DNA of 64,000 nucleotides from Eledone cirrhosa (taxonomy: Eukaryota), in contig OZ024740.1 in assembly GCA_964016885.1 (NCBI GenBank), positions 205,716,001 through 205,780,000 of the forward strand, in the 5' to 3' direction. This document shows, in pieces, positions 1,039 through 37,500 of the stretch. Positions within the stretch are counted from its first letter, which is position 1. Each line of letters starts with the position of its first letter. The translations under genes were made by a program, and so were the position numbers. The notes under the pieces were generated by a model. The model did not search any database and was not told the DNA's origin. It was given only the letters and a program-made list of their open reading frames with translations.

Positions 1039-3146
1039 ATTATGAAAATAAACCAAAGAAGCCTTCAATACATCAAAAGTCTTTATTAGCCAACAATGTT
1101 TCGTCCTATTAAGGACTCATCAGGGCAAGAAAGCTATAAGAAGCACTATCGAGATATTCTCTTCTTGCCCCCACGCCATTTCTAATTCTTACTTTTATTA
1201 TAAACCTAAAAGTTCTGGTAGTGTAAATTGTATCCATTAGCTGCTATATTCCCTTATCTTTTTTGTTTAGGTTCATTTTGTTTACCACCATCATTATCAT
1301 TATTATTATTGGTTTTTAACAGCTTTTCGATCTAGCTTTCATAGTCTTTTGGCTACCATACCATATCTATCTTCTTAAATATTATATTTTCACTATTAAC
1401 ACCTTATGAGTTTATATCTGATTATATATTTTATTTTATTTTATATTATTTTATTTTATTTGGATTCTCATTTAGATAATTAACCCCCTCCCTCCCCCTC
1501 CCACACTTGTCATTCGCCCCTTCAATTATACTATAATTATATTCAATTCCCTTTTATGCTCCTTTCTATTGTATAATACAGTATATTGATTATGATTTTA
1601 TGCTCCTTCGTATCCTCCATACATTTCTTTTTTCTGTCCCCATTGGCCTACCATTGTTCTATCTTAAGTCCGTTTATTAGATAACGTTATTCAACTGATA
1701 GTAGAATATTTCATTCTATTCTGGATATTTTTATTGAGATATCTTAAACTTTGGAGATTTTGATTACTTAAACCATAGCTAATTTTGTATTGACTTATTA
1801 TGTATTTTAAATACTTTCAATATTAATTAATTTAATAGGGTTTTCTAGTCATTTATCCGGGTTTGATTCCTAATTTTTTTACTTAACTGCTTGTGACACT
1901 TAAGTAAATATATTTGTTTTTGTTTTTCGATTTCCGGTGAATTTATTTATATTTTTTTTTACTACCGTGCGTAGTTTCTGTCTGGTTCTTATTCACTTAT
2001 TCACATATGTCTGTCTACCAACCATGTAATTATGTATATTATACTATGTTCATTATTTGATATTGAAGTTGTTATATCATATCACTCTATGTAATCGTAC
2101 TATTGATCTTAAATATTTACCGATTATTGGATGTACCCTTATGTTAAATTTTGTAAATTCTGTAATATGTTTATATTTTTATAATTTTTGTAATGTTTAG
2201 ATAATATTTATTTATACCAATTGTATAAAAACTTGACCTCCGTCTGTTTTCTTACAACGGTATAGATATTTTTCCAGCACAATTTTTTCAACACAATTTA
2301 GTTCTGTATGATATTTTTTTCTCACCCTGTGTGTAACTTTATATGATTTGTTAAGTCATATGCCAATATATTATAATAATGTTATTATAGTGTTATTGTA
2401 ATATTTATATTGTTTGTACAAATTGACCGGAGATTATTAATTATATAATTATATAGTATATTATATATTATATGTTTACTTTTACTCATTTCTTTATCAT
2501 TTTATACTGTAAATAATATATGTATTATATTTTTATTTTTATTTTTATTTTTATTTATTTATATTTAAACTCTTAATAAGTGTTAGTTTGTGTTTGTATT
2601 GATGGATATGTGTATTGATATATATATATATATATGTGTACATATGTATATATATATATATGTATATTGGGCCTTTTAATATTATTATTATTATCATTAT
2701 CAATTATATTATATTATATTATATTATATTATATATAGTACTGTAATTCTCGCTTTATATCACCACTTGTGTTTAGCTTTAGTTTTTGCATTGTACTATA
2801 TTTGTAATATGGTTCAAAATGTTATTCACTTCCTTAGCAATTTTTACTTGATAATTTTTACTTGATAATTTTCCTATGCTTTAATGTATGTATACTCCAT
2901 ATTCTTCTGAGTTTTTGGCTTGTATTGGCCGATAGTGCTTCTTATAGCTTTCTTGCCCTGATGAGTCCTTAATAGGACGAAACATTGTTGGCTAATAAAG
3001 ACTTTTGATGTATTGAAGGCTTCTTTGGTTTATTTTCATAATTCTTCGGCTCTGTTTAATTACATTGAGCTATACCTTTACTGTCATTTCTATAATATGA
3101 AGAGGGTGTTTAACTCCAACACGCTCTAGTATTTTAATTCTTCTTA
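1039..3146 (+). mobile_element. ORF-less Penelope-like element derivative with 113-bp inverted hammerhead-bearing ends
   Basis: 1039-1151 is the reverse complement of 2930-3042; about 100-bp tail beyond; (TA)n on both flanks. Confidence 0.8.
2948..3000 (+). ncRNA. Minimal type-I hammerhead ribozyme, family A (mirror copy on minus strand at 1081-1133)
   Basis: UUGCC-CUGAUGA-GUCC(UUAAUA)GGAC-GAAA-CAUUGU-U-GGC: intact core, 4-bp stem II, palindromic stem III, GUU cleavage triplet. Confidence 0.85.
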
Positions 3147-3894
3147 TATATATATATATAACATTACGAATTGCTCACAATTCTTTCAGAATAACATTAC
3201 TAATATAATGCCTTTGTTAAACACAAATATAAACAAATACAATTAACTATTGTTAGGAACTTCACAAAAACAACACACCAAAATATATGACCAGAGTGCG
3301 AGAAAGAAGAAAAAAGATGGGGAAGCAAACACAAAAACTCAAAACGACCATCAATTCACCACCAAGTGAAACAATTGGCCGCACCTCTTCTTTATTACAC
3401 ACTGCATCTGATTTCTCTAATGCAGTTTTTATCTCATCTCATCATTCATGCACACTAACAATACACATCGATTGGATTATGCTCGACTTGTGCATCATTC
3501 GCTATCTCTCTACACCTCTTTTGTACTCACATTTTACATTGTGTACATCGTATAAAGTTCCTTCCTACTACGTTTTTACATATTGAGTACAGCTATATCT
3601 CTGGTGATATGAGAGTCGTGTCTTCTTTCCTACTTACTAAAACCTTTACTTAGTTTACTCTTAGTCCTTTTGATTCTAATTTCTGTTCCAGTGTTCCTCT
3701 CAATATCGTTATCTTTTGTTCTGGCAGCAGTTCGTTTGTCCACCCCTTTCGCTTGTATGTATGTAGTCCAAGATGTGTGTATTACCTGCTTTTTTTTTCT
3801 TTCCTTTTCTTTTTTTATGTATTTGAAATATTATTTATACAATTGTGAATAACATTTTGAGACTTTCTATATATATATATAAAAAACATTTCTG

Positions 3895-4170
3895 TTTCGA
3901 AAGCCGGAAATATCTTTCCAAGCTTTTCCACAGATTCAGTTATAAGAACTAAGTTCTTAACATACAGAAGTTCCGATGGACAGCCAGTCATAAACTCATC
4001 TGCTATGGTCCGGAGAACTACAATAAACAGAAGTGGACTGAGGATAGAGACCTGATTAACACCATTGAATTCCTCACTAAACTTATTAATTACCCTTACT
4101 TTACTGAAAGCATCTTTGTACATGACTTGCAATGCTCTACACGTCATCCATCTACACAGTGACCTAAAAA
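3895..4170 (-). mobile_element. RTE LINE RT fragment
   Basis: RALQVMYKDAFSKVRVINKFSEEF..GVNQVSILSPLLF..TGCPSELLY. Confidence 0.85.
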
Positions 4171-4449
4171 TAGGAATATGAAAATCACATTCAGTGGAGA
4201 GAATGACAGCTAAAGCTGACAAATAAATCGATACTTTTTATTAAAAAATTAAAAAATTAGTTAGTTAAAGGCAATCTTGTCGAATATCTGCGTAGTTAAA
4301 AATGAAACTAATGATAATGGGGAATATATAAAAAAAACAACAACTTATAATTCTTGACTTACCGAAATAAATGAGTTTCATTTTAGTGTGGAAACTTCTA
4401 ATATAATTTAACTACCTTATTTCTTTTGTGTATAATACAACTTGAGTAT

Positions 4450-4870
4450 AATAATGGCTTGGATGCTGCAGGCTTTCCCTCCCACCTCGAGCCGGCAGAG
4501 CTGGACCGAGGAGACAGCAAAAGGCCAGACGGTATGACTATCTTCCCGTTTCGCGGTGGGAAACCCCTCATCTGGGATACCACATGCAACGACACATTCT
4601 CCAGCGACAACCTGGTACAGTCTGCGATTAACCCAGGCTTTGCTGCACTTCGGGCCGAGGAGGGTAGTAAACTCTCTAAATATCAGTCTTTCTCCGACAA
4701 GTTTGCGGTCGAGCACGTGGCAGTGGAAACTTCTGGTGCTCTTAGCCTCAGGACCACCATCATCGGCACAGAGTTGGCTACCCGTAGGTATGATCCTCGC
4801 GAGCTCTACCAGTTGGAATGGCTCTTCCAGCGCATCTCTCTCACCATCCTCCGGTGAAACGCCTTCTCTA
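4450..4870 (+). mobile_element. CRE-clade RLE fragment related to 10945-12150
   Basis: LEPAELDRGDSKRPDGMTIFPFRGGKPLIWDTTC...VAVETSG. Confidence 0.85.
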
Positions 4871-5249
4871 ATGTGTCCGCCGGGACCGCAGAGTGACCAG
4901 CGCGTGGGCCCCCATTAGCTCATAATAGTGAGAGATGGGGAGAGCGAGAGAGATGGAGGCAGTGACAGTGGAGTTTGGTTCTTTTGTGTTCGGACCTGGT
5001 GTATGTTTTACGGACACACACTCATGCATCTAGAATGAGATGAAGACGAGGGCAAGTTGAACCGCCCCAGTAGCTTATAACAGGATCTAACATACGTCCC
5101 CGGCTCGGCTTCTGATGCTAAAAAATGGGAATAAATTACATATTTGGGTATAATGCGACTCCGGCTTACAGTCACGTCTATGTTAATTATCGCTTTATAA
5201 TTGAAGCGGGAAAAGTATAATTTTTAAAATAGGCCGCAGATGTAATAAT

Positions 5250-5437
5250 AATTGTTTCTACTTTTGGCACAAGGCCAGCAATTATCCCAGTGGATTACTG
5301 GTACTTTATTTTATCGACCCCGTAAGGATGAAAGGCAAAGTTAACCTGGGCGGGATTTGAACTCAGAACGTAAAGGGACGTAACCCCATGCTGAAAAGCA
5401 TGGCCTATGACCCTCTACCGATACTGCCAATCCACCG
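5250..5437 (-). mobile_element. tRNA-derived SINE with Meta/MESC-like central domain
   Basis: A box TGGCAGTATCGG, B box GAGTTCAAATCC, core GCCTTTCATCCTTACGGGGTCGATAAAATAAAGTACCAG. Confidence 0.88.
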
Positions 5438-5487
5438 CAACAATATTAACAGAACTTATGTTGTCTCTTCATTAACTTATTTTATCA

Positions 5488-5672
5488 GGGGTGGATTGGC
5501 AGTATCGGTAGAGGGACGGACGCCATGCTTTGACGCATAGTGACGTCCCTTTACGATCTGAGTTCAAATCCCGCCGAGGTTGACTTTGCCTTTCATCCTT
5601 ACGGGGTCGATAAAATAAAGTACCAGTAATGCACTGGGTAATTGCTGGCCTTGTGCCTAAAGTAGAAACAAT
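5488..5672 (+). mobile_element. tRNA-derived SINE, same family, inverted relative to 5250-5437
   Basis: Same boxes and core. Confidence 0.88.
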
Positions 5673-5804
5673 TAATTTATTTTATCAGTTTCCTATCTTT
5701 GAGATAAACGACGTTCAATTAAGCTGATTATCAAATACGTATTTGTAAAAATTATCAATACGTATTTGTAAATTTGCCGTTTGAAATTAGTATTTTTAGC
5801 TCTG

Positions 5805-5844
<40 letters not shown>

Positions 5845-5876
5845 ATGTGTGTGTGTGTGTTGACAAAACTACAATA

Positions 5877-6977
5877 CCACATGGTGTTTCATACATACTT
5901 ATATATATATATATAGCCATTACTTAGTTTTAGCTAAGAAGACCAAGGTTATAGCGAAGCAAGGTCTTTAGGTAATATTTTTGATGCCCATATTGAACAA
6001 GGAAGTGAAAATCATAGGCGTTTCTATAAGTAAGGTTAAACAGATGAAAACACGCTGATTAGTTACACAAGATTAAGAAATTAGATTTACTTCCATCTAT
6101 CACTAATGTATATATGTATTCTATTGAATAAATACATACGTAATTAAACTCTACCATTTATGAAAAATGTACAAAATATAATAACTTGAGTTTCTGAAAT
6201 TGCGAAACTTCTAAGTTAACTGAAGGGTTGTTTTGTTTCCGTACTTATAAAATGAAATTATTTTTACTTATATTTAAAGCGTTAAATATACTTTGTTTGC
6301 AAGGATGAACATTTCATTACAAATGCAGACATATTCATAGATTTAAAAAATGTTTGTGAGGTAAAACAAATCCAATTTAAATTTGTAATATAATTTTCAT
6401 CCTTGCAAACAGTGCCGGATTTAGGACAAATGAGGCACTGTGTTAGTTAAGTTATGAGGCCCCGTACTTGGGCCCTGAAGAAGGTAAACATTTTGGGGGG
6501 TAAGGAAGATGGTCCCCAACTCCCTGGTCCATGGGGTCCTGTGCTTAAACACACCTAAGCATTCCGCAAAATTTCATTTTTACGAAAACGTAACCAAACC
6601 TTTAGTTAACTTAGAAGTATTTAGAAGTATCTTGAAACAAAACCCATTTGTTTCGTCAATTTAAGAAACTCAAGTTATTATATTTTGTACATTTTTCATA
6701 AATGGTAGAGTTTAATTACGTATGTATTTATTCAATAGAATACATATATACATTAGTGATAGATGGAAGTAAATCTAATTTCTTAATCTTGTGTAACTAA
6801 TCAGCGTGTTTTCATCTGTTTAACCTTACTTATAGAAACGCCTATGATTTTCACTTCCTTGTTCAATATGGGCATCAAAAATATTACCTAAAGATCTTGC
6901 TTCGCTATAACCTTGGTCTTAGCTAAAACTAAGTAATGGCTATATATATATATAAGTATTGTGAAACACCTTGTGAT
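5877..6977. repeat. Long foldback inverted repeat with near-identical arms of about 330 bp
   Basis: 5877-6208 is the reverse complement of about 6650-6977; weaker pairing continues inward; partial arm copy at about 8410-8475. Confidence 0.9.
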
Positions 6978-6993
6978 ATATATATATATATAC

Positions 6994-7320
6994 ATATTAA
7001 AGTACAAATATTAATAAAATAGATGTTCTTTTGATCAATTACATTTTATTATACATATTTCGGATGTACAACAGTACGCCCTCATCAGACAAAATATAAT
7101 GATACATGACATACCCTGAGATGTTAAATGGTTAATCAAGGTTTAATAAGATTTAACCATTTAACCATTTAAAATGTAATTGATCAAAAGAACATCTATT
7201 TTATTAATATTTGTACTTTAATATTAATAACTCTGGAAAATAATTTTTTCGTAGAGTGCTTCCAATCTACTGTAAAACTCATTCTTTGATATACTCATTG
7301 AATCTTGTTTAACTCTTTAA
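6994..7320. mobile_element. PLE pseudo-LTR relic with inverted arms, family B
   Basis: 54-bp arms at 6994-7047 and 7171-7224; homologous to 7855-8178; (TA)n flanks. Confidence 0.8.
7043..7095 (-). ncRNA. Minimal type-I hammerhead ribozyme, family B
   Basis: AUUUUGU-CUGAUGA-GGGCGUAC(UGUU)GUACAUCC-GAAA-UAUGUAU-A-AUAAAAU. Confidence 0.85.
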
Positions 7321-7806
7321 TATATATATATATATATATATGTAGGAGGTGAGTTTTATTGTAGCACAATAAAGCAATGCAAATATGTATTATCAAATAT
7401 GTAATTATGTACTATCTTACAACGTTTTTTTTAAATTTTTCTATGTGAGACAGTGTTTCTCAGTATTAAAGGTTATCTCTCTCTCTCTCTCACTCATTTT
7501 CTCCTCCTCTCTCATCCTTCCTTCTTATACTCCTCCTCCGTCATCCTTTCCTTATTATTTTTTTTTTTCTTCCTCTTCCTTACCTTTTCTTCCCCTTTCC
7601 TTTCCTTTTTTCCAATCTCATATATCCCTCTTATTTTATTTTTCATATGTTCATTTGACACTTCACTGCTCGCAAGTGTTTTTTAAGCTTCTGATCATGT
7701 CTCCCTATTTTATCTAATGAGAACGCAAATATCATCCCATGATGATATTTGCTTTTGAAATGCGCATAATAAAATACATGGAACTCTTTTAACCATCTTT
7801 TGATTT

Positions 7807-7854
<48 letters not shown>

Positions 7855-7863
<9 letters not shown>

Positions 7864-8173
7864 TACAAATATTAATAAAATAGATGTTCTTGTGATCAAT
7901 TAAATTTTATTATACATATTTCAGAGGTACAACAGTACGTCCTCATCAGATAAAATAAAATGATACATGACATGTATCATTTTATTTTATCTGATGAGGA
8001 CGTACTGTTGTACCTCTGAAATATGTATAATAAAATTTAATTGATCACAAGAACATCTATTTTATTAATATTTGTATTTTAATATTAATAACTCTGGAAA
8101 ATATTTTTTTGTAGAGTGCTTCCAATCTACTGTAACTCATTATTTGATGTACTCATTGAATCTTGTTTAACTC

Positions 8174-8178
<5 letters not shown>
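7855..8178. mobile_element. PLE pseudo-LTR relic forming a 231-bp palindrome plus tail, family B
   Basis: 115-bp arms around centre 7970; inserted in (TA)n. Confidence 0.85.
7984..8036 (+). ncRNA. Minimal type-I hammerhead ribozyme, family B (mirror copy on minus strand at 7904-7956)
   Basis: AUUUUAU-CUGAUGA-GGACGUAC(UGUU)GUACCUCU-GAAA-UAUGUAU-A-AUAAAAU; perfect 7-bp stem I. Confidence 0.85.
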
Positions 8179-8208
<30 letters not shown>

Positions 8209-9171
8209 TACGAAGGCCAAGGCAATACACACATACGCAAATACACACACACAAACACACACACACATATAATATTAACTAGTGAGTAGCTGAGTATTCC
8301 GCAGATAAAAATAAACAACTAAGAACTCATCATTCAATACAATACACAGATAATGTAACAGGCGTATATATATTTTGATTTGTTAATCTAGTTTAACTAC
8401 GTAATTAGTACATTTTCATCTGTTTAACCTTGCTGGTAGAAACGCCTAGGATTTTCACTTCCCTGTTCAATATGTGATAGTGAACTTTGCTTTTATAAAA
8501 CCAGTCTAGAATGAGCAGTACACCTCCGTTGGTCCCAACAGTGGGTGTTCCAGTCATTCGATCAATAGAACAGCTTGTTCATGAAATTAATGTACAAATA
8601 AATAGCTAAGCATTCCGCAAGTATGCGGTGTCTTAACGTAGTTCTCAGGGAGATTCAACATGACATACTGTCTGACAAACTGGCCCTTTGAATTACAAGC
8701 ACAGCACATTTTTCTCAGTAGTCACACATTGAATCTCCCTGAGAACTACGTTAAGACTCCGCGTACTTGAGCAACGTGAGATGAAGTGCCTTGCTTACGG
8801 ACGCAATGCATTGCTGAGAACCAAACTCACGACCGTACAACTGTGAGCTAATCAATATAACCACTAAGCCGCGTACTTTCACTAACCACTAAGTCAAATG
8901 TAAACTCAAGATTAGAATTAATATAAAATTTTCTTGGTCACGGTCATTGCAAAACGATAGTACTTACTGAACACAGCAGTCGAGTAGGTTAAGAATTAAC
9001 TAATAAATTGTATGTTAATTGATGAGCTCATAATTTGATTTGACTGATGCCCTTGAAAATGATGTCATATTATTGGCTATTGAACATGAATGACGAAGAC
9101 AATGTATTTCATAGGTTGTGTAACCAATGATTTGTAGTTTTAGCTGAATCATAATAATCCTCATCACCTCC

Positions 9172-9817
9172 ACCTGGGTACATTTTATTATGGCACCAGC
9201 ATTACCACTTCACAATGTGTACTGGGTACATTTTATTGTGGCACCAACATCACTACTTTATAGTGTGTACCGGGTACATTTTATTGTGAAACCAGCATTA
9301 ACACTTTACAGTGTGTACCGGGTACATTTTATTGTGACACCAGCATCACTACTTTACAGTGTGTACCGGGTACATTTTATTGTGACACCAGCATCACTAC
9401 TTTACAGTGTGTACTAGGTACATATTATTGTGACACCAGCATAACAGCTTCACAGTGTGAACTGGGTACATTTTATTGTGGCACCAGCTATACCACTTTA
9501 CAATGTGTACTGGGCACATGTTATGTGGCACCAGCATCACTACTTCACAGTATGTACCGGGTACATTTTATTGTGGCACCAGCATTGCTACTTGACAGTG
9601 TGTACTGGATACATTTTAATGTGACACCAACTTTATCACTTTACAATGTGTACCGGGTACATTTTATTGTGGCACCAGCATTGCTACTTGACAGTGTGTA
9701 CTGGGTACATTTTAATGTGACACCAACTTTATCACTTTACAATGTGTACCGGGTACATTTTATTATGGCACCAGCATTGCTACTTTACAATGTGTACCGG
9801 GTACATTTTATTGTGGT
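9172..9817. repeat. About 48-bp minisatellite, related to the RTE 3'UTR unit
   Basis: Unit approximately tgtgacaccagcatcactactttacagtgtgtaccgggtacattttat. Confidence 0.9.
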
Positions 9818-9939
9818 ACTAGAACTAACACCTACCTATCCATCGGCCTGCTTATCTAGCTGCCTACCTATCTGCATACCTACCTGCCTACTTACGCAGG
9901 TGCAGTGGAAGCATTTCTGAATTTGATGGGGTGGGGGTT

Positions 9940-10712
9940 GGTGATGACGGCCTCCGCGCTCTCCGACACTTTTTAGACTTACGCCCTACCCCTTACCACA
10001 GCACTACCACTCTTCTCCGTCTGCCTGAGCTTGTTCTGACCCTCAATGGGTTTTCCTATTCCAGTGAATTCTATCAGCATGTCTCTGGGGTAGAGATGGG
10101 AACCAGAATGGGGCCAAACTATGCCAACTTGTTTGTTGGCTACATCGAAGCCCAGATCTTCCCCCAGCACGCTGGACCTACTCCTGAGCTATACGGTCGG
10201 TATATCGACGACTGTACCGGCACCACTTTTCTATCACGTGAACAGCTCGATTGCTTTCTATCTTTTGTTCAAACTTTCCATCCCGCTCTCACCTTCGCCA
10301 CCTCTGTCCCTTTTCTTGATATCTCTCTCTCTCTACTTCCATCTTCTATAAACCAACAGACTCCCACTCTTACCTCGACTTCACCTCCTCCCATCCAACC
10401 CACACCAAACTCTCCATACCTTACTCCAAATTCCTCCGTCTTTGTCGGTCTGCAGTCAGGACCACGATTTCGAAACCCATTCCCTTCACATGGCCTCCTG
10501 CTTCACCCAGCATGGATATCCCTCCACTCTGATCCAAGTTGCTCTTACCAGCGCCCGTGAAATCGACCATACCACAGCCCTCTCACCTCACCAGCGTCCT
10601 CTCAGCACCCGCCTTCTTTCCTCTCTCACCTACCACCGCATCACCCTACCTCCCAGGCGAAATATTCTCCATTCCTTCCGCACCCTCTCTTCTGACCCCG
10701 TTACTTCTAGTT
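9940..10712 (+). mobile_element. Penelope-like element RT fragment, degenerate
   Basis: LVLTLNGFSYSSEFYQHVSGVEMGTRMGPNYANLFVG, YGRYIDD, VPFLDI. Confidence 0.9.
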
Positions 10713-10944
10713 TTTTTAGCGCACTCATGGGGGTTCTCCGAGGAAGGAGAAAATATCCTGGGGGCCATCTGTTATCTATCAGTAAAATAACCAGCGGTCA
10801 CTATAAATAGGCTGTCCTGTGGTCCTAACTCACTCAGTCCTCTGCTTTTTTTCTAGACAACACAGTCAGGATATATAACGGTGTACTACTACACCAGCAC
10901 TGTCAACTGTAACTTGTCACTTTTCTTTTAAGGGAAACCTATGG

Positions 10945-12150
10945 TACTCATCTGCAATGTCAGTTTCGACAGCGCAGGCTGGCAACAGGCAACACTCCCA
11001 GCGAGGTTCGGTGGCCTCGACCTCCGATCAGCTTCGGGTCTCGCTTTACCTGCCTATCTATCTTCTATCTCCTCCTGTCATGCTCTCGTCAGCGAGGCTC
11101 TCAGCCAGATGGCCGAACCTGACCTGGCCCCCGAGATGGAACAGGCTCTGGCCTACTGGACAGGCGAAGGCCTCTCTATCCCCCAGTATACCATAGTCCA
11201 ACGTAACTGGGACGACATCAATTGCAGGTCCTCTGTCAGGCAGAGAGAGTCTGGCTTGGACCAACACCGCCTCGCCTGCTTCCGCTCCGCATCTCAGCCC
11301 AACAGCGGCACGTGGCTCAATTCGGTGCCCCCCTTAACAACCAGTACCCTATTTGATGATGAGTGCACTAGCATCGGGGTAGCCCAACGCCTTGGCCGCC
11401 GCGTATGTGAGCCACACAAATGCCAATGTGGGGCGGTTCTTGACAAGTTCGGCCTGCACCCACCTGTCTTGCCGCCAGAGCGCAGGCCGGTTCCCCCGAC
11501 AGGCCGCTCTCAACGACATATTGAGAAGAAGCCTGGACGCAGCTGACTTTCCATCACAACTGGAGCCAGCAGGTCTAAACCGCGGAGATAGCAAGCGCCC
11601 TGACGGAATCACCCTCTTCCCATTCGAAGCAGGTAGATCCCTCATCTGGGACGCCACCTGTTGCGTCATGTTCTCTGCCTCCAACTTAATCGCTTCGACC
11701 ACAAACCCCGGCATTGTGGCCCGCCTCGCAGAAGAACGTACAATAAACAAATAACGGGGTTTGTCCGACCGCTTCCTCTTCGCACCGGTCGCCGTCGAAA
11801 CCTCAGGCATACTTGGACCCCGTACTGCAAGATCGGAGCATCTGAGGAGGGAGCCCCACGAGGTTGGGTGGCTGTTGCAGCGACTGGCGATTGTCTGGGG
11901 AAGTGCTTTTGCCGTCTTGTCAGCGGGGCGCAGTACTTCTATCCTCTTGGCACAAAGCCCAATAACCCTTCCCCTCACCTCTCTTATGCAACACCAGAGC
12001 TCTTGCCATCCCTCCCCTTCCCGTTCTTCTTCTTTTTTCTTTCTTTCTTTCTTTTTTATATATTTCCCTATTCTTTTTCCTTTTGTTTCCCCTTTTTATT
12101 AATTCTTACTAAATTTTATTTTTAAAATAAACATTTAATTAAAATAAAAA
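10945..12150 (+). mobile_element. CRE-clade non-LTR retrotransposon 3' portion (Zn knuckle plus restriction-like endonuclease)
   Basis: QATLPARFGGLDLRSA, SGTWLNSVP, CQCG..DKFGLH.LSC, RGDSKRPDGITLFPFEAGRSLIWDATC, PVAVETSG; A-rich tail near 12150; frameshifted. Confidence 0.85.
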
Positions 12151-13064: not shown

Positions 13065-13194
13065 AAAAAAAAGGAAAGGAATGACTTCACTTGTAGTTCT
13101 AAACAATTTGATTTAATTTTATATTATGATTATAATATAAAATTAAATCAAATTGTTTAGAACTACAAGTGAAGTCATTCCTTTCCTTTTTTTT
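13065..13194. repeat. 63-bp-arm hairpin with a 4-nt loop
   Basis: 13065-13127 pairs with 13132-13194. Confidence 0.92.
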
Positions 13195-13860: not shown

Positions 13861-13896
13861 TCTTCTGCTGAAGGACTAGTGTCTGAAACATAAAGA
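13861..13896 (+). ncRNA. Degenerate hammerhead-like motif
   Basis: UCUU-CUGCUGA-AGGAC(UAGU)GUCU-GAAAC-AU-A-AAGA; core mutated (CUGC instead of CUGA). Confidence 0.4.
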
Positions 13897-14249
13897 CTCC
13901 TTTCCTACTATACCAAACATTAAACTAACACATTTTTCATTGTACGGTGTTGTTTGCTTTGCTGTTTCCGTTTACTTTTTGCATACAGATTATACATATC
14001 ATCATCATCATCACCGTTTTACATCCATTTTTCCATGCTTGCCTGGGTTAGACGAGTTGTCCTGTTGTGGGCAATGCTAGGTCTTACTCATACAGAACTG
14101 ATTTTGGCTTGGATGCCCTTCCTAACGCCAATGTGCATATATATATATATATATACTCCTGCGTTGTTGTTTTTTTATATTCCTATATATATATAATTCT
14201 TCATTGTACTGTGTTGGTTGCTTTGTTATTTCTATTTACTTTTTACACA

Positions 14250-14903: not shown

Positions 14904-14921
14904 ATATATATAATGCATGAG

Positions 14922-18091: not shown

Positions 18092-21000
18092 CTAGCAAAA
18101 TAGAATTAGAATAATTAGAACCAGCGTTAGACAATAATAGACTTACATCATTTGTGCACATTGACATGGAAGTTCCTTTAGTCTAAGGTGGACATGACAG
18201 CCTTAGTGGCAGTGACACAATAGTTCACATAGTTTCAATTCAGCACTCATAAAGTGGTGGATGAACAAACCAAGACAACAAAAAAGAGAGAGGAACCCCT
18301 TGGATCTGCCAAGCACCCAACAACTTCACAAGTGTTGGTGCCGTAATAAAATGTACCCAGTGTCATCATCATCATCATCATCTTCGTTTAACGTCCATCT
18401 TCCACGCTGGGAACTGGGAACTTTTTACCGTGTTACCTACACGGCCACATTACAGCGTGGACTGTGTGTTTTTTTGTTGACACCTACATGATCGCGATCT
18501 CATTATATCATTTATTTGGCCTGGATGTTGTGGTACCAACTTTACAGAGAGAGGGTGGTGTTGGTGGGAGTGGGAGGATAGGGTAGGAGTAGTGGATTGG
18601 GGTGTATATTTGGTTAAGAGGTGCCTACTGACTGTAGGTTTCACTTTGTACATAGGCAAGGCAGGTCTTTTGTATTACTGCGTGGCGCCAAAGATCTCGG
18701 TCCAGTGACATTGTCTTAGAGAGGTGCAAGTGTATAAGGTCGGAATTTATCAAATCGTCCCAGGTTTTTAGTGGGTCTACCTACTCCGTAACTTCCATCA
18801 ATTTTGATCGCCCTACACTTTTTTATACAGCTGTCGTCTTTCATGCGCATCACGTGACCATACCAACGTAGTCTTCTCTCAAGTAAACAGCATCTGATCC
18901 CTCTTATTCCTAATTTCTCACTTAGTTCATTTATGCTTTGCCGTTCACGTATATTACTATTACACATCCAACGGAGCATGCATGCTTCATTCCTTTCCAG
19001 TCTGCGCAGGTCCTCTGCACGCAATGCCCATGTCTCACTGCCATGTAGCATTGCTGTTCGTATACAAGCATCATACAATCTGCCTTTCATTTTTAGAGAG
19101 AAACCTTTAGTGGCCAATAGTGGTATAAGCTCTCTGAACTTTTTCCATCCCGTTCTGACTCCTGTACTTTCAGAGCACCCTCCACCACTGCTGATTTGTC
19201 ACCCAGGTAACGGAAAGTGCCCACTATTTCTATAGAACCATCTGGGCAATAGAAAGAGCTAGTATCCTGTGGGCACTTGCTACTTATTAAACCTGAGCAT
19301 CGGCCACATATAAAATCTACGTTCTTAGATAGTTTACCTATGATCCCACTACATCTTTTATGTACCCATAGTTTGCATTTGGGACATAAAATGGAATTTC
19401 TACCTACTCCATTCTTACACACTGAGCATGGCCATTTCCCTGAGAGCACCTGTACCCTATTTTCCTTCCTACATACTAGAACTTTAGTCTTAGACAAGTT
19501 AACTTTAAAGCCTTTTGATTCTAGGCCATGCTTCCATGTTTGGAATTTCTTCTCTAGTTCAGCCATAGATTCAGCTATGAGTGTTAGAACATCTGTGTAT
19601 AGGAGCTCCCATGGGCAGCCGGTCTTAAACTCCTCTGTTATAGCCTGAAGGGCAATAATAAATAGGAGGGGGTTAAGGACAGAGCCTTGATGAACCAACA
19701 ACTTTTACACTAAATTCTTCACAATATTCATTGTTAATTCTAACCTTACTGACTGTTTCATTATACATAGCTTGTATAGCTCTCAGAAGCTATTCATCTA
19801 CACCTAGTTTTCTAAGAGCCCACCAGATAATGGAGCGGGAGACTCTGTCAAAGGCTTTCTCCAGGTCTACAAAAGCTAAGTAGAGGGGGTTTACTTTTAG
19901 CTAGGTACTTCTCCTGTAGTTGTCGTACAAGGAAAAGAGCGTCTGTGGTACTTTTACCTGACACAAACCCAAACTGCATTTCATCTAGATCAATTTGCTC
20001 TGTGACCTTCATGACCTGATCAACTAACTTAATGCCTCTATAGTTTCCCCTATCTAGAGCATCCCCTTTACCCTTGTAGCAGTTAATGATGTACTCTGTA
20101 AAATGGATAATCAAACAGAGACAACATAAGATAGGAAAAAAAAACACTTGGCTGGAAACCAGTATCCTAGTGATAATGACATCATATCTGCTGTTGATGA
20201 CTTTTTTGACCCACAGGATGAAAGCTTCTTCACCAATGGGATCCAAGCACTGCAATACTGATGGAAGAAGTGTGTGGACATAAGGGGGACTATGTTGAAA
20301 AATAAACCTCTTCATTTGGTCACATTCCATGAGAGTATCTCGGTCAGCCTATGAACTTTTCAGCTGACCCTCATATATACACATATAATTATATACATAC
20401 ATAGAGAGAATTGATCTAGATGAAATGCAGTTCGGGTTTGTGTCAGACAAAAGTACCACAGACGCTCTTTTCATTGTACGACAACTACAGGAGAAGTACC
20501 TAGCTAAAAGTAAACCCCTATACTTAGCTTTCGTCGACTTGGAGAAAGCCTTCGACAGAGTCCCCCGTTCCATTATCTGGTGGTCTCTTAGAAAACTAGG
20601 TGTTGACGAATGGCTTGTGAGAGCTATACAAGCCATGTATAAAGAAACAGTCAGTAAGGTTAGAATTAACAACGAATATAGTGAAGAGTTTAGCGTAAAA
20701 GTTGGTGTCCATCAGGGCTCTGTTCTTAGCCCCCTACTATTTATTATTGCCCTTCAGGCTATAACAGAGGAGTTCAAGACCGGCTGCCCATGGGAACTCC
20801 TATACGCAGATGATCTAACGCTCATAGCTGAATCAATGACCGAACTAGAGAAGAAATTCCAAACATGGAAGCACGGCCTAGAATCAAAAGGCCTTAAAAT
20901 TAACCTGGCTAAGACTAAAGTTCTAGTTTGTAGGAAAGAAAATAAGGCGGCGGTCCCATCTGGGAAATGGCCATGCTCAGTGTGTAGGAAAGGCGTAGGT

Positions 21001-24000
21001 AGAAACTCCATTTTATGTCCCAAATGCAAAGTATGGGTGCATAAAAGATGTAGTGGGATCACAGGTAAGCTAACTAAGAACATAGATTTTACATGTGGCC
21101 GGTGCTCTGGTGCAATAAGTAGCAGCAAGTGCCCACAAAATACTAGCTCCTTCAACTGCGCAGAGGGTTCTATAGAAATAGTGGACAGCTTCCGTTATCT
21201 GGGTGACAAAATCAACAGTGGGGGAGGGTGCTCTGAAAGTACAGTAGCTAGAGTCAGAACTGGATGGAAAAAGTTCAGAGAGCTTATACCACTATTAGCC
21301 GCTAGAGGGTTCTCCCTAAAAATGAAAGGCAGGTTATACGATGCCTGCATACGAACAGCAATGCTGCATGGCAGTGAGACCTGGGCATTGTGTGCAGAGG
21401 ATATACGCAGACTAGAGAGGAACAAAGCTTGCATGCTCCGCTGGATGTGCAATAGTAATATACGTGAACGGCAAAGCATAAACGAACTAAGGAAAAAATT
21501 AGAAATAAGAGGGATCAGATGTTGTTTACTCGAGAGAAGGCTACGTTGGTACGGTCACGTGATGCGCATGAAAGACGACAGCTGTATAACAAAGTGCAGG
21601 GCAATAAAGATAGACGGTAGCCACGGAGTAGGCAGACCCAGAAAAACATGGGACGAGCTGATAAATTCCGACCTCACACGCTTACACCTCTCCAAGACAA
21701 TGTCACTGGACCGAGACCTTTGGCGGTACTCAGTAATAGAGAAGACCCGCCTTACCTAAATACAAAGTAAAAACCTACTACAGTCAGTAGGCATCTCTAT
21801 CAAAACACACCCCCGTCCCACCACCTCCACCCCACCCACACCGCCCCTTTCAATGTAAAGTTATGTTGGTCCCACAACATCCAGGCCGAAACAAATGAGA
21901 TCGTGTAGGTGTCACGACAAAAAACACACAGTCCACGCTGTAAATGTGGCCGTGTAGGCAACACGGTAAAAACCTCCCAGCCCCACACTGTAAATGTGGT
22001 TGGTGTTAGGAAGGGCATCCAGCTGTAGAAAACCCGCCAGACAGTCCACGCTGTAATGTGGCCGTGTAGGCAACACGGTAAAAACCTCCCAGCCCCACAC
22101 TGTAAATGTGGTTGGTGTTAGGAAGGGCATCCAACTGTAGAAAACCCGCCAGACAGTCCTATGCGAGCAAGACAACCACTCTTGCCTCAAGTGGGAAAAC
22201 CCCCGTCCAAACCCATGCAAGCGTGGAACACGGACGCTAAACCTGATGATGATGATGATGATGATGATACACAGTTTAACTTATGCCAAAGCCTCCAAAA
22301 GAGGAAGAAGATACAAAGCAAAAAAAAACAAAAAAACAATGCAATAAACTTTCGCTCACATCATATCCCTAACTGCAGTTTCTGGAATTCTTCTTCGCCC
22401 ACTTATTCCTGAGGGTTGTGGGAGCAAAATCCTCAAGCACTCCTTCCAGTGGGTCCTGTCAGAAGTAACCGTCTCCAACTGATCTGGCTGGATCCCCAAG
22501 TAAGACCAGCCAAGCTCATGGATGTTATCCAACTATCTTGCTCAGGGTCTACCACTGGGTCTCCTGTCAGTTGGTTTTGCCCATAAAATCTGTCCAGTGA
22601 TTCTTTCCTGAGACATTCTAACCACATGCCTGTAGTATAGGAGCTGTAATCTCTCAATTCAGAGAAGTAGCAGCTCTACCTGGAGTGACTCTCTGATCTC
22701 CAAGCTATGCACTCTATTGAGTAACGTTACTCCAAAGACTCTTCAGGGGAATCCCATTTCAGCCGCTTGTATTCGCGATCATATTCTTTCAGTCACTACC
22801 CAAGATTCATGACCATAGGTAAGGGTAGGCACAAATAAGAATTAAGAAACAATAATAATGATCCTAATAAATTAAACAACCAACATTGGAAGCAAATTCC
22901 TTCACCCGTGTGTGTCCATTCTGCTACAATGAGGATATCATCATCATATTTTTATACTAACTAATGAATATAATTTTTTCTTTTTCAAAGAATCTCTGAT
23001 AAAAGAATTTTCTTCCAATATAGGTTGTCTTAATTTATTAGGATGATTAATATTGTTTCTTAATTCCAGAAACTGCAATTAGGGATATGATCTAAGTGTA
23101 ACTTTCTTGTATTAGTTTGTTTCACGTTGTATCTTCCTTCTCTTTTGGAGGTTTTGGTATAAGTTAAACTGGGTTTATATACTTCTCTGATCTAGGAATT
23201 CTTAGCTGTCTTGTTTATAGAGATGTTTTCTATATTAATGACAATTTTCTTTTCTCTGTTACTTACATACATATACATGTGTGTATGTGTGCATGTGTGT
23301 GTATTAAAAAAAAAATGCCCCCATTGGTCATGAATGACCATACTTTTGCACCTAAAAAGTTTCCCTCTGAGGCACAAGCCTGGGCAAGATTTGTTTGTGG
23401 AAGACCAACATTTGTCCATGAATAGAAGCCTCCACTCTCCTGGTTTTGTCCAAGGGAAAGGCAATGACTGATAAAGCTTGACACCAGAGATATTGCAACT
23501 CATTTCTACAGCTGAGTGAACTGGAGCAACGTGAAATAAGGTGTCTTGCTCAAGGACACAATGCATCAGATGGTTTGAGAATTAAACTCACAACCTCTAA
23601 ATTGCAAGCCCAATGCTCTAACCACTAAGCCATGCGAATGTGTGTGTATACACACATATATATATATATATATATGTGTGTATACACACATATATATATA
23701 TATATATAATGGTTAATATTGCTGGAAAATGGTTACTTACTCAACAATGAGGGGTCTGAAAGAACTGAGTAATAGAAGTACGAAAACAACTGGGAAAAGT
23801 GATTTGCGGAGATCGCTTCGTGTCCAAAGCCACACCAAGAGTGCTGTTGAGATGTGTTGAATCTAGAATTAAATAAATAAAAGAACAAAACTCTGATTTC
23901 AATATTTCTTTCATTGTAATAATCCCCATGCAACAAAAGTTCATATATCAATTATTTCATTAATGCTTTCTATGTTTGTCACAGCCTGAGGCTCGACTGG

Positions 24001-33000: not shown

Positions 33001-33895
33001 TCAGATTAGTTGATAGCACACAAATAAACGGGGAAAAAATGTTTTTACAATGAAATCGAATGGGGTTTTCTTCTATAATAATACCATTTTTAAAGAGGAT
33101 GACGCAGCACACAGGGATATCATAAAATGTCTTGTAAGATTACGCCACTAATACCATTGGAACGTTGATAGACTTCTAAAAGATTTACTAAGGGAACATT
33201 AATATAAAACGGTGTCGGAGGGGCCATAACTGAAAAAATCCTACCCTGATAGTCGGTCGTACGATTTTAGAAATAACAGTTAAACTCCCTCTAAAGTAAA
33301 GATATGACATGCCTGTATTCATAGGTTTGTTGAATCAAGGCTGACTTCACTAAGGAACAACCTATCGCTACGTTAAACTAACCGGTATCACAGGCAAGAC
33401 ATCTCGTTTGAAGAAAACGATTCAATGGGTTCATATCGCATGCTCCTCATAATATATATATATAAAACTACGAGTTGACAAGGGAACCCTAATGCGGCGC
33501 ATACACACTGAGATATTCCCATTTTCTTCAAACGAGATCTATTTCTGTACTCTAATACGATTCAGCAATTAAGACACGTTTGTGTTTGTCACGGTAAGAA
33601 AGCAAGAACTATACAGATGATTACCAGAAGAAAATATAAAAAGAAATATAGTTAGTAGAGTATCTGTCAGCGAGGTATGGTTACGTACTATTACGTGGAG
33701 AGTGATATTAACATGATGGGTCATGCACGTTATCTACATAGGTTAAAGCATGTTATAGTGTTTATGTGGAGTTACGCTTTCATACAATTTTAAAAACATT
33801 TTTTTCTGCTATACTTACATTCCAGAACATCTGTACACTATTACATATGGCACGTATGCCAATGCAACACAATTTCCGAAGTGAAATAATGTCAT
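17977..33895 (-). CDS. TMEM147: Transmembrane protein 147 (BOS/multipass-translocon subunit), 6 coding exons, 223 aa
   Basis: Exons 33895-33819, 29998-29863, 28411-28275, 25092-25008, 23862-23741 and 18091-17977 all have GT-AG boundaries with consistent phases. Total 672 nt, open. Protein [17 protein letters not shown]...AFWKCVQAG...[38 protein letters not shown]... is the recognisable TMEM147 sequence. Confidence 0.97.
18363..20090 (-). mobile_element. RTE-clade LINE copy of the same family, frameshifted
   Basis: ORF pieces 19848-20330, 19093-19701 and 18716-19117 are homologous to 20425-21759; (CAT)n tail at 18363. Confidence 0.94.
20135..20374 (+). mobile_element. Mariner transposon 3' fragment with right TIR
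   Basis: [51 protein letters not shown]; TIR gtcagcctatgaacttttcagctgaccctca followed by TA. Confidence 0.85.
20402..22268 (+). mobile_element. RTE-clade LINE, 5'-truncated, open 444-aa RT ORF with internal PHD finger, 3'UTR and (GAT)n tail
   Basis: [35 protein letters not shown]4HC3 cluster, [21 protein letters not shown]; in TMEM147 intron 5. Confidence 0.96.
22400..22830 (-). mobile_element. Second RTE-like LINE family, C-terminal fragment (related pieces at 1-150 and 24295-24560; endonuclease piece about 16700-17030)
   Basis: [17 protein letters not shown]...; [30 protein letters not shown]; VVQVIAPNIESEY. Confidence 0.75.
23741..23862 (-). CDS. TMEM147: TMEM147 exon 5
   Basis: Acceptor ttctag; [40 protein letters not shown](E); donor gtaagt. 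Confidence 0.94.
25008..25092 (-). CDS. TMEM147: TMEM147 exon 4
   Basis: Acceptor ttgcag; [28 protein letters not shown]; donor gtaagt. Confidence 0.96.
25955..27725. repeat. 22-bp minisatellite, about 80 copies, in TMEM147 intron 3
   Basis: Unit agctgggacagtgctgctctat. Confidence 0.97.
28275..28411 (-). CDS. TMEM147: TMEM147 exon 3
   Basis: Acceptor ttgcag; [45 protein letters not shown](R); donor gtaagt. Confidence 0.96.
28478..28800 (+). mobile_element. CORE-like tRNA SINE (other copies about 23325-23635 minus, 46145-46290 plus, 8770-8880 minus, 44700-44825 plus, 62360-62480 minus)
   Basis: tggcttagtggttagagc A box, gagtttgatt B box, tgtgtccttgagcaagacacttta core. Confidence 0.82.
29863..29998 (-). 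CDS. TMEM147: TMEM147 exon 2
   Basis: Acceptor tttcag; [45 protein letters not shown]; donor gtcagt. Confidence 0.95.
33819..33895 (-). CDS. TMEM147: TMEM147 exon 1
   Basis: Starts at ATG; encodes [25 protein letters not shown](M); donor gtaagt. Confidence 0.96.
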
Positions 33896-34400
33896 AATTT
33901 GAAGCCGATCTATTCTAGCAAGTGAACAACGAAACGGTGTAAACTAAAAGAAGTTAACACGTATTTTTTAGGTGTGTGTATTTATGTATATATATATAAA
34001 TTTCTCGGCAACTCTTATAAAACTAATGGACTCTACAGGAAAAAAAGATATATATAAAGCAATTTAATTAATAATCAGATAAATGATTTATCAATTTGAT
34101 ATCAAATACTAACTTGAATACTGTTTGCACGTATTTTCAGTAAAACATTTAAAAGTAGAACACATGTACTTACGTATGATTCAATTTCTTAAACTATTTA
34201 ATATTTAAAAACTATATTTCCAAAATTTTCAAACCGTGTTGTTAAAAAGACATTACATTATTTTTTTTATTTCATATTAAAAAAAAAAGTTCCTGCTATA
34301 ACGTAAACTATTTTATGCATTTATTTCTTACATAGTTACCGTTTCCAAGGAAAACAATCTTCCTTAAGCTTAGTTGAATGCAACACGAAAAATAGATGAG
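33896..34400. promoter_or_regulatory. Putative bidirectional promoter with an RFX X-box-like site at 34335-34355
   Basis: 505 bp between divergent ATGs. GTTACCGTTTCCAAGGAAAAC resembles the RFX X-box (GTNRCC-N-RGYAAC) found upstream of ciliary genes. Confidence 0.6.
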
Positions 34401-34427
34401 ATGTCCAGACAATTCAATGCTAATCAG
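34401..34427 (+). CDS. CFAP126: CFAP126 exon 1
   Basis: MSRQFNANQ followed by donor gtaata. Confidence 0.88.
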
Positions 34428-34467
34428 GTAATAAACTATTTTCTCATCTGTCTGTCGCTTGCTTTTA

Positions 34468-34516
<49 letters not shown>

Positions 34517-37500
34517 GTGATAGAGGGACTCAAATTTATCTTGGAGAACAATTACTTCGTTTTCAATAACAAACCCTACAGGCAGAAATCTGGGACCGCT
34601 ATGGGAACGAAAACAGCCCCACTTATGCCAACCTAGTCATGGGATACCTGGAAATCACCCTCTACACTAAAATCCTAAACAAATTTGGAAACACTCTCCA
34701 CTTACACATAGAAAGGAACTGGAAGCGATATCTAGATGACTGCTTCATCCTTTGGTACGAAAACATCGAAAAACTTAAAGAATTTCACACCCTTATAAAT
34801 GGGCTCAACACGAATATTAACTTCACGATGGAATACAGCCATCAACAACTCCCCTTCCTCGACATCCTCATTAAGATCCATAACAAAAAAATAGAAACAG
34901 ACATATACTACAAGCCCACAGACTCCAAGCAATATCTTCCTTTCAACTCTTGCCACCCTAGACACGTTAAAATTAATATTCCCTACAACTTAGCCAAGAG
35001 AATCTGTACTATAGTCTCCAATAAAAACACCTGCTACTTACGGCTACAAGAACTAAAGGACACACTCATAGGCAGGGACTACCCTGCATCACTAATTGAC
35101 AATGGAATCCAACGTGCCCAAAAACTCAGTACCCAGGACCTTAGACACCCTAAAGTAAATCAACTGAAACTAAAAGCTCTTCCATACATCTCCACACACA
35201 ACCCCCTCAACAATGAGGCCTTTGACACCATCCTCCAGAACATCCCTGTGTTGAAAAAGGACCATAGAATGAACCAAATCCTACGAACACACGATATCAT
35301 AAAGAGCAAAAGACAATCTAAGTCAATGAAAAACATCCTAACACATGCCAAAGTACTGCCAACCACAACAACGAAACCCACAGTAAAAAAAATGCGATAG
35401 ACCCAACTGTGGCATTTGCATCAACCTAATAGAGGGTTCGGAATTCTATTTCAAAGAAGGACAACGTTTTATAGTAAAACACAATTTCACATGTGCATTG
35501 GAAAATCTAATATATGTATTAACTTGCTCAGGTTGTCGAGAACAATACATAGGCCGGACCAAAAACAGCCTCCGCCAACGCATGACTGTCCATAGATCCC
35601 AAATTAAAATACGGGAATACTGGAAAATACCACTGAGTGAACACATTGATACCTGTGCCGCCCCAAATCATCCCAACTTCAGAATCTTTCCCCTCTACAA
35701 ATTTAAAGATAATGCCACCCACACCCAGCGCATCAGCAAGGAATCTTACTTCATTAACAAATACGGACCCCGTCTAAACACTTCTCCCTAAGACGAACCC
35801 ACAACATACACACGTCAACATACATACCTACATCAGCACACATCTCTACCCACATATAAACACAATGACATACGTAAACACACATGTTCTATGGTGCAAC
35901 ACAAAAAAAAATATATATATATATATATATGGAAAGTTATATTTAAAATTGTTGGGTTACAACTAGTAAATATTTATAACTGATATAAAAGCACTCGACA
36001 AATATTTGGAGTATATTTACAATATTAAATAAATGGAAACTATATTTATAAAACCATATTTATTTCATTATATATATTTCGGGGATATCATATTAACAAT
36101 ATGCTATGCCTTCCTCAGACAAAATACAATATAAACAGTTTTATAGATAAATAGATTCGACATACCGTTGTAACACCGACTTCCATTTGAAGAGGTTTTA
36201 ACTGCCAGCTTAAACCTCTTCAAATGGAAGTCGGTGTTACAACGGTATGTCGAATCTATTTATCTATAAAACTGTTTATATTGTATTTTGTCTGAGGAAG
36301 GCATAGCATATTGTTAATATGATATCCCCGAAATATATATAATGAAATAAATATGCTTTTATAAATATAGTTTCCATTTATTTAATATTGTATATATATA
36401 TATATATATAGTGAATATGTGTATGTATATATATATAGTGAATATCATTTCACACCTTTTATTGTTAAGGTTTTTGATGTTCTATTGAGAGAATCGTTTT
36501 TACTGAAAATATCGAATAATGTACACCATTTTACCAGGGAAAAAAATACTGGTCCACCCACCCACACACACACACATATATACACACACACATACACACG
36601 CGTACATTAACATACAAAGAGACTTATACACACACACACACACTTCTCTGTATAAGACAAGAGCTGAAAAATATCTTTTAACATGTTAAAATATCCCTCA
36701 CTCACTTACAGACACATTCCTACTGACCATCCCTCTACCACGAATTACTCTGCTACACACACACACACACACTTGTCTTAATAGGCATTTGAACTGTCAA
36801 CAGGCTGCGGTTCGCACACACATCCCTGCTAACCATTATCACAACAACGAACACTTTACTACTACTACACACACACACACACACACACATATTTGTTGTG
36901 AAAGAGTCATTTCTCAGTCTTGGCGCAAAATCAATTTTTTACATTCACATGACCTCTACTGACCAATCAAAATTGTTTTGACCACAAGAATTTTTGCAAC
37001 ACGAATTGGCGCAAAAAATAATTTTAATAGCGCTGGAGCCATTTTTTTAACATAAAAACAGGTAGAATTCCCAAAACTAATCAGATCAGAGCAAACATCA
37101 CGGACGCTCTATCTCAAAATTATTTTTGAAAAGCATTTAGAAATGCGCAACCGGTAAAACTTAAAACCAAAACTCAATACTAACCAATACAATTACTAAT
37201 TCTCATTTATTCCTAATTAAACTATTTTTCACTGTGAACAATTTGTCAGCATTTTCTATTCCGTTTACCAATATATATATATATATATTGTATTGTTTAC
37301 TCGAGAGAAGGCTACGTTGGTATGGACACGTGATGCGCATGAAAGTCGATAGCTGTATAACAAAGTGCAGGGCAATAAAGATAGACGGTAGCCACGGAAT
37401 AGGCAGACCTAGAAAAACCTGGGACGAGCTGATAAACTCCGACCTCACACACTTACACCTCTCCAAGACAATGTCACTGGACCGAGACCTTTGGCGGTAC

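Follow-up and report, generated by a model that had tools for sequence, protein, structure and literature searches.

Hammerhead-bearing inverted repeats in TA microsatellites of Eledone cirrhosa: probable truncated insertions of Hydra-clade Penelope-like elements

Four inverted-repeat loci in (TA)n runs

The window analyzed here is a stretch of 64,000 nucleotides from Eledone cirrhosa (GenBank assembly GCA_964016885.1, contig OZ024740.1, positions 205,716,001 to 205,780,000, forward strand). It contains four (TA)n-flanked inverted-repeat loci of three DNA families, here called A (locus 1), B (loci 2 and 3) and C (locus 4), which the sequence comparisons below identify as almost certain remnants of Penelope-like elements (PLEs) of the Hydra clade. 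Coordinates and layout of the loci had been described in an earlier note made from the letters of the window alone, and inspection of the window confirmed them, as did our analysis for the recognition of the loci as PLE pseudo-long terminal repeats (pLTRs) with minimal type I hammerhead ribozymes, inverted 5′ copies and insertion in (TA)n. Between the families, whose sequences were described there as dissimilar, the pLTRs indeed had no DNA similarity detectable by BLAST. Signed positions are counted from the predicted hammerhead cleavage site. The features are listed below (ORF, open reading frame; UTR, untranslated region; RT, reverse transcriptase; Inr, initiator).

1039..1151, minus strand: family A inverted arm, a partial pLTR from about −59 to +53; hammerhead core starts at 1123 (minus strand); outer end adjoins (TA)n
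1151..1240, plus strand: final 29 codons and stop of the family A ORF, with the C-terminal CxH motif of the GIY-YIG domain
1241..2907, plus strand: AT-rich 3′ UTR of family A (the "1.8-kb spacer"), 81-91% identical to full-length copies L091, L092, L098 and L099
2908..3042, plus strand: family A pLTR to the first fixed 3′ end (+53); hammerhead core to cleavage site 2958-2989
3043..3144, plus strand: 100-nt tail of family A to the second fixed 3′ end (+153), then (TA)n
6994..7135, minus strand: locus 2, family B inverted arm (−85 to +56); hammerhead 7088-7050
7136..7169, no strand: locus 2 junction filler of ~34 nt, resembling rearranged bits of the neighboring pLTR
7170..7320, plus strand: locus 2, family B forward arm (~+2 to +151) including the tail, without ribozyme core, then (TA)n
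about 7850..7969, minus strand: locus 3, family B inverted arm (−62 to +56); hammerhead 7949-7911
7971..8178, plus strand: locus 3, family B forward arm (−62 to +151); hammerhead 7991-8029; tail of ~95 nt, then (TA)n
35931..36208, minus strand: locus 4, family C tail-bearing arm (−139 to +138); hammerhead 36118-36069; tail 35931-36011
36201..36390, plus strand: locus 4, family C opposite arm, from an Inr-like A (−140) to the first fixed 3′ end; hammerhead 36292-36341
34513..37288, plus strand: Neptune-type PLE, 5′-truncated, RT and GIY-YIG, frameshifted; unrelated to A-C, with locus 4 in (TA)n inside its 3′ region

The arms of locus 1 (1039-1151 and 2930-3042, 113 nt) are 100% complementary and have 1778 nt between them, and the tail ends at 3144. 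The forward arm is truncated at its 5′ end within the family A ORF, 29 codons ahead of the stop; by its sequence, locus 1 is an inverted pLTR piece joined to a family A copy truncated at that point. A description of the loci as ORF-less does not fully apply here, where 1151-1240 encodes the last 29 residues of the endonuclease. Among the four spacer lengths given originally (1.8 kb, about 120 bp, 1 nt and 13 nt), those of loci 1 and 3 stand; locus 2 has the ~34-nt filler, and the 13-nt tip of locus 4 is obtained only when no mismatch is allowed, two mismatches giving arms of 193 nt with a 1-nt tip. The forward arm of locus 2 is truncated and lacks the ribozyme, as first described, and starts ~2 nt past the cleavage site. 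At locus 3 the inverted-repeat part of the forward arm spans 7971-8090, separated by 1 nt from the other arm, and the tail runs to 8178; locus 4 has its architecture on the minus strand, with the tail at 35931-36011. The hairpins formed by loci 3 and 4 are nearly perfect, and each has its tip at a short native palindrome.

A strict scan for type I hammerheads found five motifs in the window (2958, plus strand; 1123, minus; 7991, plus; 7949, minus; 7088, minus), whereas 100 dinucleotide shuffles averaged 0.02 motifs and never held more than 1. When an additional base beside stem II was permitted, a relaxed scan, to which this shuffle control does not apply, added 36292 (plus) and 36118 (minus) of locus 4 and none elsewhere in the window. 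The four loci hold seven predicted hammerheads in total, and stem III is palindromic in all three families, as previously proposed: an odd palindrome in A, with one G-U pair in B and perfect in C. Rfam returned no match for these hammerheads at its gathering score, and single-strand folding of the monomers was not distinctive (z −1.8 to +0.7). Core and stems held across the genomic copies compared (24 A, 23 B and 66 C), N7 being the sole core variant in at least three copies and the stem variants including G-U/A-U and G-U/G-C swaps. The predicted ribozyme cores are conserved and of the dimer type described in PMC4209133.

A paralogous block on contig C1 (~205.39-205.43 Mb, ~330 kb upstream) is 98-99% identical to positions 1-9000 and 34401-39500 of the window. 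It holds loci 1-3, and the Neptune-type element without locus 4; the empty site has 26 nt of TA compared with the 19 + 20 nt that flank the locus 4 insert, and the gain in TA could be explained by a target duplication or by slippage. Whether a segmental duplication or an uncollapsed haplotype, the block provides an empty site for locus 4. Perfect hairpins can arise in long reads and are a recognized artefact of them, but it is very improbable that the palindromes seen here are assembly or library fold-back products: the arms stop at family-specific positions, the flanks are unique and unmirrored, loci 1-3 recur in the block and locus 4 has its empty site there.

Full-length relatives and clade placement

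Searches of the same genome with A, B and C gave 2695, 2440 and 827 candidates; among the 40 scored for each, the best-scoring copies were 96-99% identical to the window copies. Exact 25-28-nt tail probes run across the genome matched at 658 (A), 1230 (B) and 2221 (C) places, and the reversed probes used as controls at 0. The tail continues into a short leader and an RT ORF in 2/30 A loci and 2/30 B loci, and full-length pLTR-ORF-UTR-pLTR elements with the same pLTRs, which the earlier note had anticipated, were found for A, B and C in longer genomic stretches. Its proposal of a distinct, ORF-less ribozyme mobilization system was given up, as each pLTR has a Hydra-clade ORF of its own physically attached at other genomic sites.

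The element units of families A, B and C measure 4718, 4069 and 3859 nt, with ~1.8, 1.6 and 1.4 kb from stop to ribozyme (tail and UTR lengths were measured within this genome). Family A has an intact ORF of 895 aa, and stop-free frames of at least 890 aa were present in 28/148 scored RT matches; family C has an intact ORF of 737 aa, and family B is more decayed, with a longest open frame of 750 codons among 151 matches. The protein of C is 53% identical to that of B, 41% to that of A and 20% to the Neptune protein. The 895-aa and 737-aa proteins are each encoded by a single ORF with a telomerase-like RT (YRDD), and a predicted structure of the family C protein (predicted local distance difference test, pLDDT, 90.6) had telomerase RTs (TERTs) as its best PDB matches (E 1.2e-9); PDB searches by sequence and by profile gave nothing meaningful. 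The profile match of the family ORFs to the Neptune RT and endonuclease (EN) reached 97.6%, and their C-terminal GIY-YIG motif, VY..Y(I/V)G..F..R..H, aligns with the Pfam-positive GIY-YIG of Neptune. The hallmarks of EN+ PLEs are present, namely pLTRs from partial tandems, an inverted 5′ copy and an optional tail (80-100 nt). A fourth Hydra-type family, D (L387, L389-L393), has the same layout, with an intact 712-aa ORF, a 1.2-kb 3′ UTR, its own hammerhead, an 80-nt tail and fixed ends near +34 and +114.

Close to the tail on its 3′ side, families A-D, with pLTRs otherwise unalike, share a leader motif in which GCTCC precedes GTYGAGC; it is missing from the short copies. As an RNA hairpin it folds in B and C and not as such in A and D, and it shows no covariation; the motif, a candidate binding signal, may for this reason be a promoter element instead.

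Further arrangements were observed among the relatives. Two pLTR pieces lie in tandem at the family D locus L351, and the family C insertions L175, L176 and L170 form inverted repeats arranged head to head, each arm measuring ~3.3-3.8 kb; in some of them one arm holds a complete ORF. A ~190-nt repeat that is frequent in the window (5247-5686, 48785-49318, 50699-50884, 56324-56510, 63715-63789) sits at the start of the family B 3′ UTR, where it is apparently a captured piece resembling a short interspersed element (SINE).

Craig et al. (2021, PMC8557442) give as diagnostics of the Hydra clade RWK, DKT, a CxCX5C linker, no CCHH, CxxC and CxH motifs, hammerheads and (TA)n targets. DKT is found in A, B, C and D, whereas the Neptune element keeps DKG; the RWK position reads RWR in A, B and C and RWK in D. 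YRDD, the CxCX5C linker, CxxC and CxH around a conserved E and N and the absence of CCHH are common to A, C and full-length B (copy L399 of B has lost two Cys that copy L094 keeps), and a pLTR hammerhead and (TA)n insertion are present in A, B and C. The Neptune-clade traits, a CX2-5CxxC linker and DKG, are absent in A-D. All three units are longer than the <3 kb that the same paper gives as a general tendency of Hydra, not as a diagnostic. Among 152 homologues the best named one came from Argonauta (39% identical), which is consistent with the octopod affinity assumed from the outset. A quick tree built from 47 proteins grouped A, B and C with three Argonauta and four further proteins (Shimodaira-Hasegawa-like approximate likelihood ratio test, SH-aLRT, 100), with D as their sister (98). 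By eye, the ORFs also resemble Hydra-1_Obim of Octopus bimaculoides, which appears in the supplement of PMC8557442 with a similar ribozyme, next to a Hydra family with an inverted 5′ copy. A-C are new families of an already described clade: a literature search, with subscription journals, Repbase and Dfam outside it, found no description of them, and an Octopus vulgaris repeat paper (PMC13282606), in the sections drawn on here, counts Penelope families with Hydra and ribozymes unmentioned.

Insertion anatomy and a possible route to inverted arms

Insertion anatomy was studied on the first tail-probe matches along contig C1 (30 A, 30 B and 72 C), which gave 27, 29 and 72 mapped insertions. The tail end (+153 in A, +151 in B, +138 in C) adjoins (TA)n in 26/27 A, 27/29 B and 67/72 C; the remaining 5/72 in C extend into the ORF leader. 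Inverted arms lie next to the forward arm in 10 A, 20 B and 44 C insertions, and their outer end, where mapped, lies around +53 in A (+44 to +53 in 8/9), around +56 in B (+43 to +61 in 14/19) and around +57 in C (+51 to +67 in 34/37); five exceptions in B and one in C have the look of alignment chains interrupted in the UTR. In every family the 3′ ends fall at two fixed points beside (TA)n that lie 80-100 nt from each other. The junctions in C have overlaps of at least 2 nt in 20/44 and fillers in 13/44 insertions.

At polymorphic sites the two arms of an insertion were discordant in 3/504 cases for C, 5/176 for B and 1/32 for A, compared with 35%, 32% and 39% between insertions, in a comparison that pools best-match and position-ordered loci. 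This low discordance indicates that both arms derive from one source molecule, unless gene conversion homogenized them. The inverted arm exceeds the tail arm in length in 23/44 C, 14/20 B and 5/10 A insertions, which is not directly obtainable by fold-back of one cDNA.

The 5′ ends are clustered as well: 39/109 C arms start within the 21-nt window −146 to −126 and 13/49 B arms within the 21-nt window −110 to −90, counts in which the two arms of one insertion are non-independent. The longest B and C arms of this peak begin at the A of TCA(+1)CT, and a non-native G precedes that A in 10/16 C and 5/13 B arms, as against 6/53 at other starts. Solo, non-inverted copies (L319, L039, L054) start at the same A, and L085 and L312 carry the extra G on both arms. 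From these sequence features we infer that the 5′ pile-up and extra G reflect run-off at a capped transcription start. A reading of position −140 in family C as a splice acceptor was dropped, since the copies start 7 nt ahead of the AG; it also fails in B, where copies start at the same TCA-CT motif without such a tract. Many pLTRs upstream of ORFs reach far beyond the Inr-like start, so that a circular or tandem template, or template jumps, would be needed for them.

The main competing origin of the arms would be fold-back or self-priming, in which one cDNA, or an antisense RNA (PMC3846280), copies itself and later tip deletions make the arms unequal. This agrees with the near identity of the arms (26 differences in 8227 sites in C), with their equal length in 13/44 C insertions and with the hairpins of loci 3 and 4, closed at native palindromes. 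We nevertheless consider it unlikely in view of the longer inverted arms in over half of the C and B insertions, where the excess is sometimes one of kilobases and the copies are 94-100% like the reference, of the separate fixed outer end of each arm, of the start shared by the solo copies and of the extra G on both arms of L085 and L312.

The Neptune-type element, whose extent follows from unlinked copies that share sequence on both sides of locus 4, had been put forward as a candidate partner of the hammerhead loci. It has DKG and a CX4CxxC linker, no hammerhead core was found in its 3′ part (36390-39500) and it shares no pLTR with families A-C; with its protein so distant from that of C, it turned out to be merely the target of locus 4. 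Its family is young (1460 candidates, best copies 98-99%) and also leaves inverted 5′ copies, and 10 of the best 40 matches are clustered on contig C12 at 17.0-17.4 Mb. It is highly improbable that the short hairpins are non-autonomous, retrozyme-like elements, transcribed, self-cleaving and mobilized in trans by a PLE such as this neighbor. Insertions of a pLTR alone are common (4/27 A, 14/29 B, 35/72 C), and retrozymes are reported to derive from PLE pLTRs (10.64898/2026.07.22.740005), but every family has ORF-bearing copies of its own, the leader motif present after the tail in A-D is missing from the short copies, and the junctions vary from copy to copy, so that the hairpins are not spreading as units. 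Retrozymes consist of at least two head-to-tail hammerhead units; here the ribozyme pairs are on opposite strands, no short head-to-tail array is present in window positions 1-9000 and none was flagged in the insertion samples.

We favor, at a probability of roughly 0.8, the reading that the loci are 5′-truncated insertions of Hydra-clade PLEs, each likely produced by the element's own RT/GIY-YIG protein through cutting of (TA)n and priming of two cDNAs on one RNA; for the part that two priming events took place on one RNA, the sequence evidence tips the balance slightly in favor. After the protein has cut a (TA)n run, each target strand would serve as a primer at an internal position of one shared sense RNA, the first at the end of the tail and the second at its start. 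The two antisense cDNAs would then extend toward the RNA 5′ end, stopping early or at the capped transcription start, and end-joining by short microhomology or with small templated fillers would link them head to head, yielding the succession of (TA)n, tail-less inverted arm, junction, tail-bearing forward arm and (TA)n. Judging from the literature, a complete transcript with a hammerhead in each pLTR would undergo dimer cleavage, and the RNA set free, of unit length and possibly circular, would template longer-than-unit copies; the chances that such ribozyme processing takes place in vivo appear even. The short hairpin loci are likely dead ends, since their ribozymes face opposite ways and leader and ORF are missing. 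A precedent for internal priming is the Poseidon PLE, which in vitro cuts and extends both strands of AT-rich DNA with two internal initiation sites that bound the tail, and for which RNA 3′ of these sites is required and ribozyme cleavage is not (PMC11167929). Two-site priming with run-off as the source of inverted pLTRs was not found in the literature search described above. More broadly, the odds are about even that an octopod-associated, currently expanding Hydra sub-lineage with long UTRs and 80-100-nt tails records, on a population scale, how PLEs build inverted pLTRs: the leader motif would guide priming from both target strands at two sites of a single capped sense RNA, and synthesis would run off where transcription starts.

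Several observations weigh against the favored reading or parts of it. Pfam gave no match for the A, B and C ORFs. The quick tree separates A-D and their homologues from Neptune but contains no published Hydra reference, and the clade placement therefore rests on motifs and a by-eye comparison with the supplement text; the tails of 80-100 nt are also longer than the 30-40 bp given for published Hydra tails (PMC8557442). The insertion sample was selected by tail probe on contig C1 alone, with 4/132 probe matches unmappable, and three insertions entered the allele comparison twice (L216/L217, L031/L032, L049/L272). Arm identity could also stem from the copying of one cDNA or from gene conversion. 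The 5′ peak of family A is weak (4/33 arms near −81, p=0.07), and this family is uninformative on the extra G, a native variant being present; in C, 5/10 extra Gs are readable as opposite-arm sequence, which reduces the strict count to 5/16 (p=0.03). A pile-up of 5′ ends at the ribozyme cleavage site was sought among the mapped arms, with no sharp peak, and hence no genomic sign of ribozyme cleavage.

Objects of this kind are already known: the literature describes (TA)n-inserted Hydra PLEs with hammerheads, an Octopus member among them, and opposite-strand ribozyme pairs are described in PMC4209133. What is added here are the two fixed 3′ ends, the alleles shared between arms and the 5′ pile-up at an Inr-like start, sometimes with an extra G. 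Craig et al. (PMC8557442) name the origin of tandem and inverted structures and the microsatellite bias as open questions, and families A and C offer material to test them: their ORFs are intact, their initiation sites defined and a transcription start predicted, and young insertions number in the hundreds to thousands. If true, two-site priming would link the internal initiation of the Poseidon element PAc in vitro to the unexplained genomic inversions and would argue against antisense self-priming. Read-through of the hairpins would presumably yield long double-stranded RNA, on which editing or small-RNA pathways might act.

Neighboring features and comparison with known systems

Beside locus 2, positions 5914-6202 and 6657-6942 form an inverted duplication of ~289 nt that is 98% identical, has its outer ends at (TA)n and carries no hammerhead. 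Its six matches are confined to the window and the paralogous block, with a related piece (77%) at 8332-8474, which points to a local rearrangement and not to a repeat family. At 18766-21759 there are head-to-head inverted RT fragments of a long interspersed element (LINE; RVT_1 and a PHD-like finger), with a 456-aa frame at 20389-21759 and arms that are 85-94% complementary. The decayed fragments 9829-10810 and 10932-12125, for which a Pfam search gave no match, resemble another PLE RT and a CRE/SLACS-like non-LTR element.

With the Hydra clade as characterized in PMC8557442, the families share a single ORF, the RT with C-terminal GIY-YIG, RWK/RWR, DKT, CxCX5C, CxxC, CxH and the lack of CCHH, as well as a type I hammerhead with palindromic stem III in the pLTR, (TA)n targets, an optional tail and an inverted 5′-truncated copy, noted there for Penelope-13_HM. 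The units are 3.9-4.7 kb compared with "generally <3 kb" in that paper, owing to the 1.4-1.8-kb 3′ UTRs and, in family A, to an insert of ~170 aa, and hundreds to thousands of young copies with intact ORFs occur here. Proteins and hammerheads of A-C differ by eye from those of Hydra-1_Obim and so belong to other families. The hammerheads of PMC4209133 are likewise dimer-type type I motifs, mostly dispersed, with an extra base before stem II as in family C. That study found ribozyme pairs 100-700 bp apart on opposite strands, ascribed them to truncated PLEs and proposed a circular template; nothing essential differs, and the present work maps the parent ORFs and the junctions.

The Poseidon element PAc of Anolis (Frangieh et al. 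2024, PMC11167929) has in common with our families an AT-rich target and two sites that bound the tail. In the published description its ORF starts inside the ribozyme and the tail lies within the ORF, whereas here the tail ends ~50-70 nt ahead of the ATG in A-C and the two sites are 80-100 nt apart. Penelope of Adineta vaga (Arkhipova et al. 2013, PMC3846280) likewise has inverted pLTRs with palindromic junctions, N-rich ORF inserts and a TCACT initiator-like motif in the pLTR, with ORF-pLTR spacers of 0.9-1.5 kb; it belongs to the Penelope/Poseidon clade, is of very low copy and has spacers that vary between copies, whereas ours are family-wide. The authors of that study favor self-priming on an antisense template. 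Non-LTR retrozymes, as presented in PMC7229834 and 10.64898/2026.07.22.740005, share the type I hammerheads, the ancestry in PLE pLTRs and short copies without ORF; they are head-to-tail tandems with ribozymes on the same strand, whereas the loci described here are head-to-head, truncated copies of autonomous elements.

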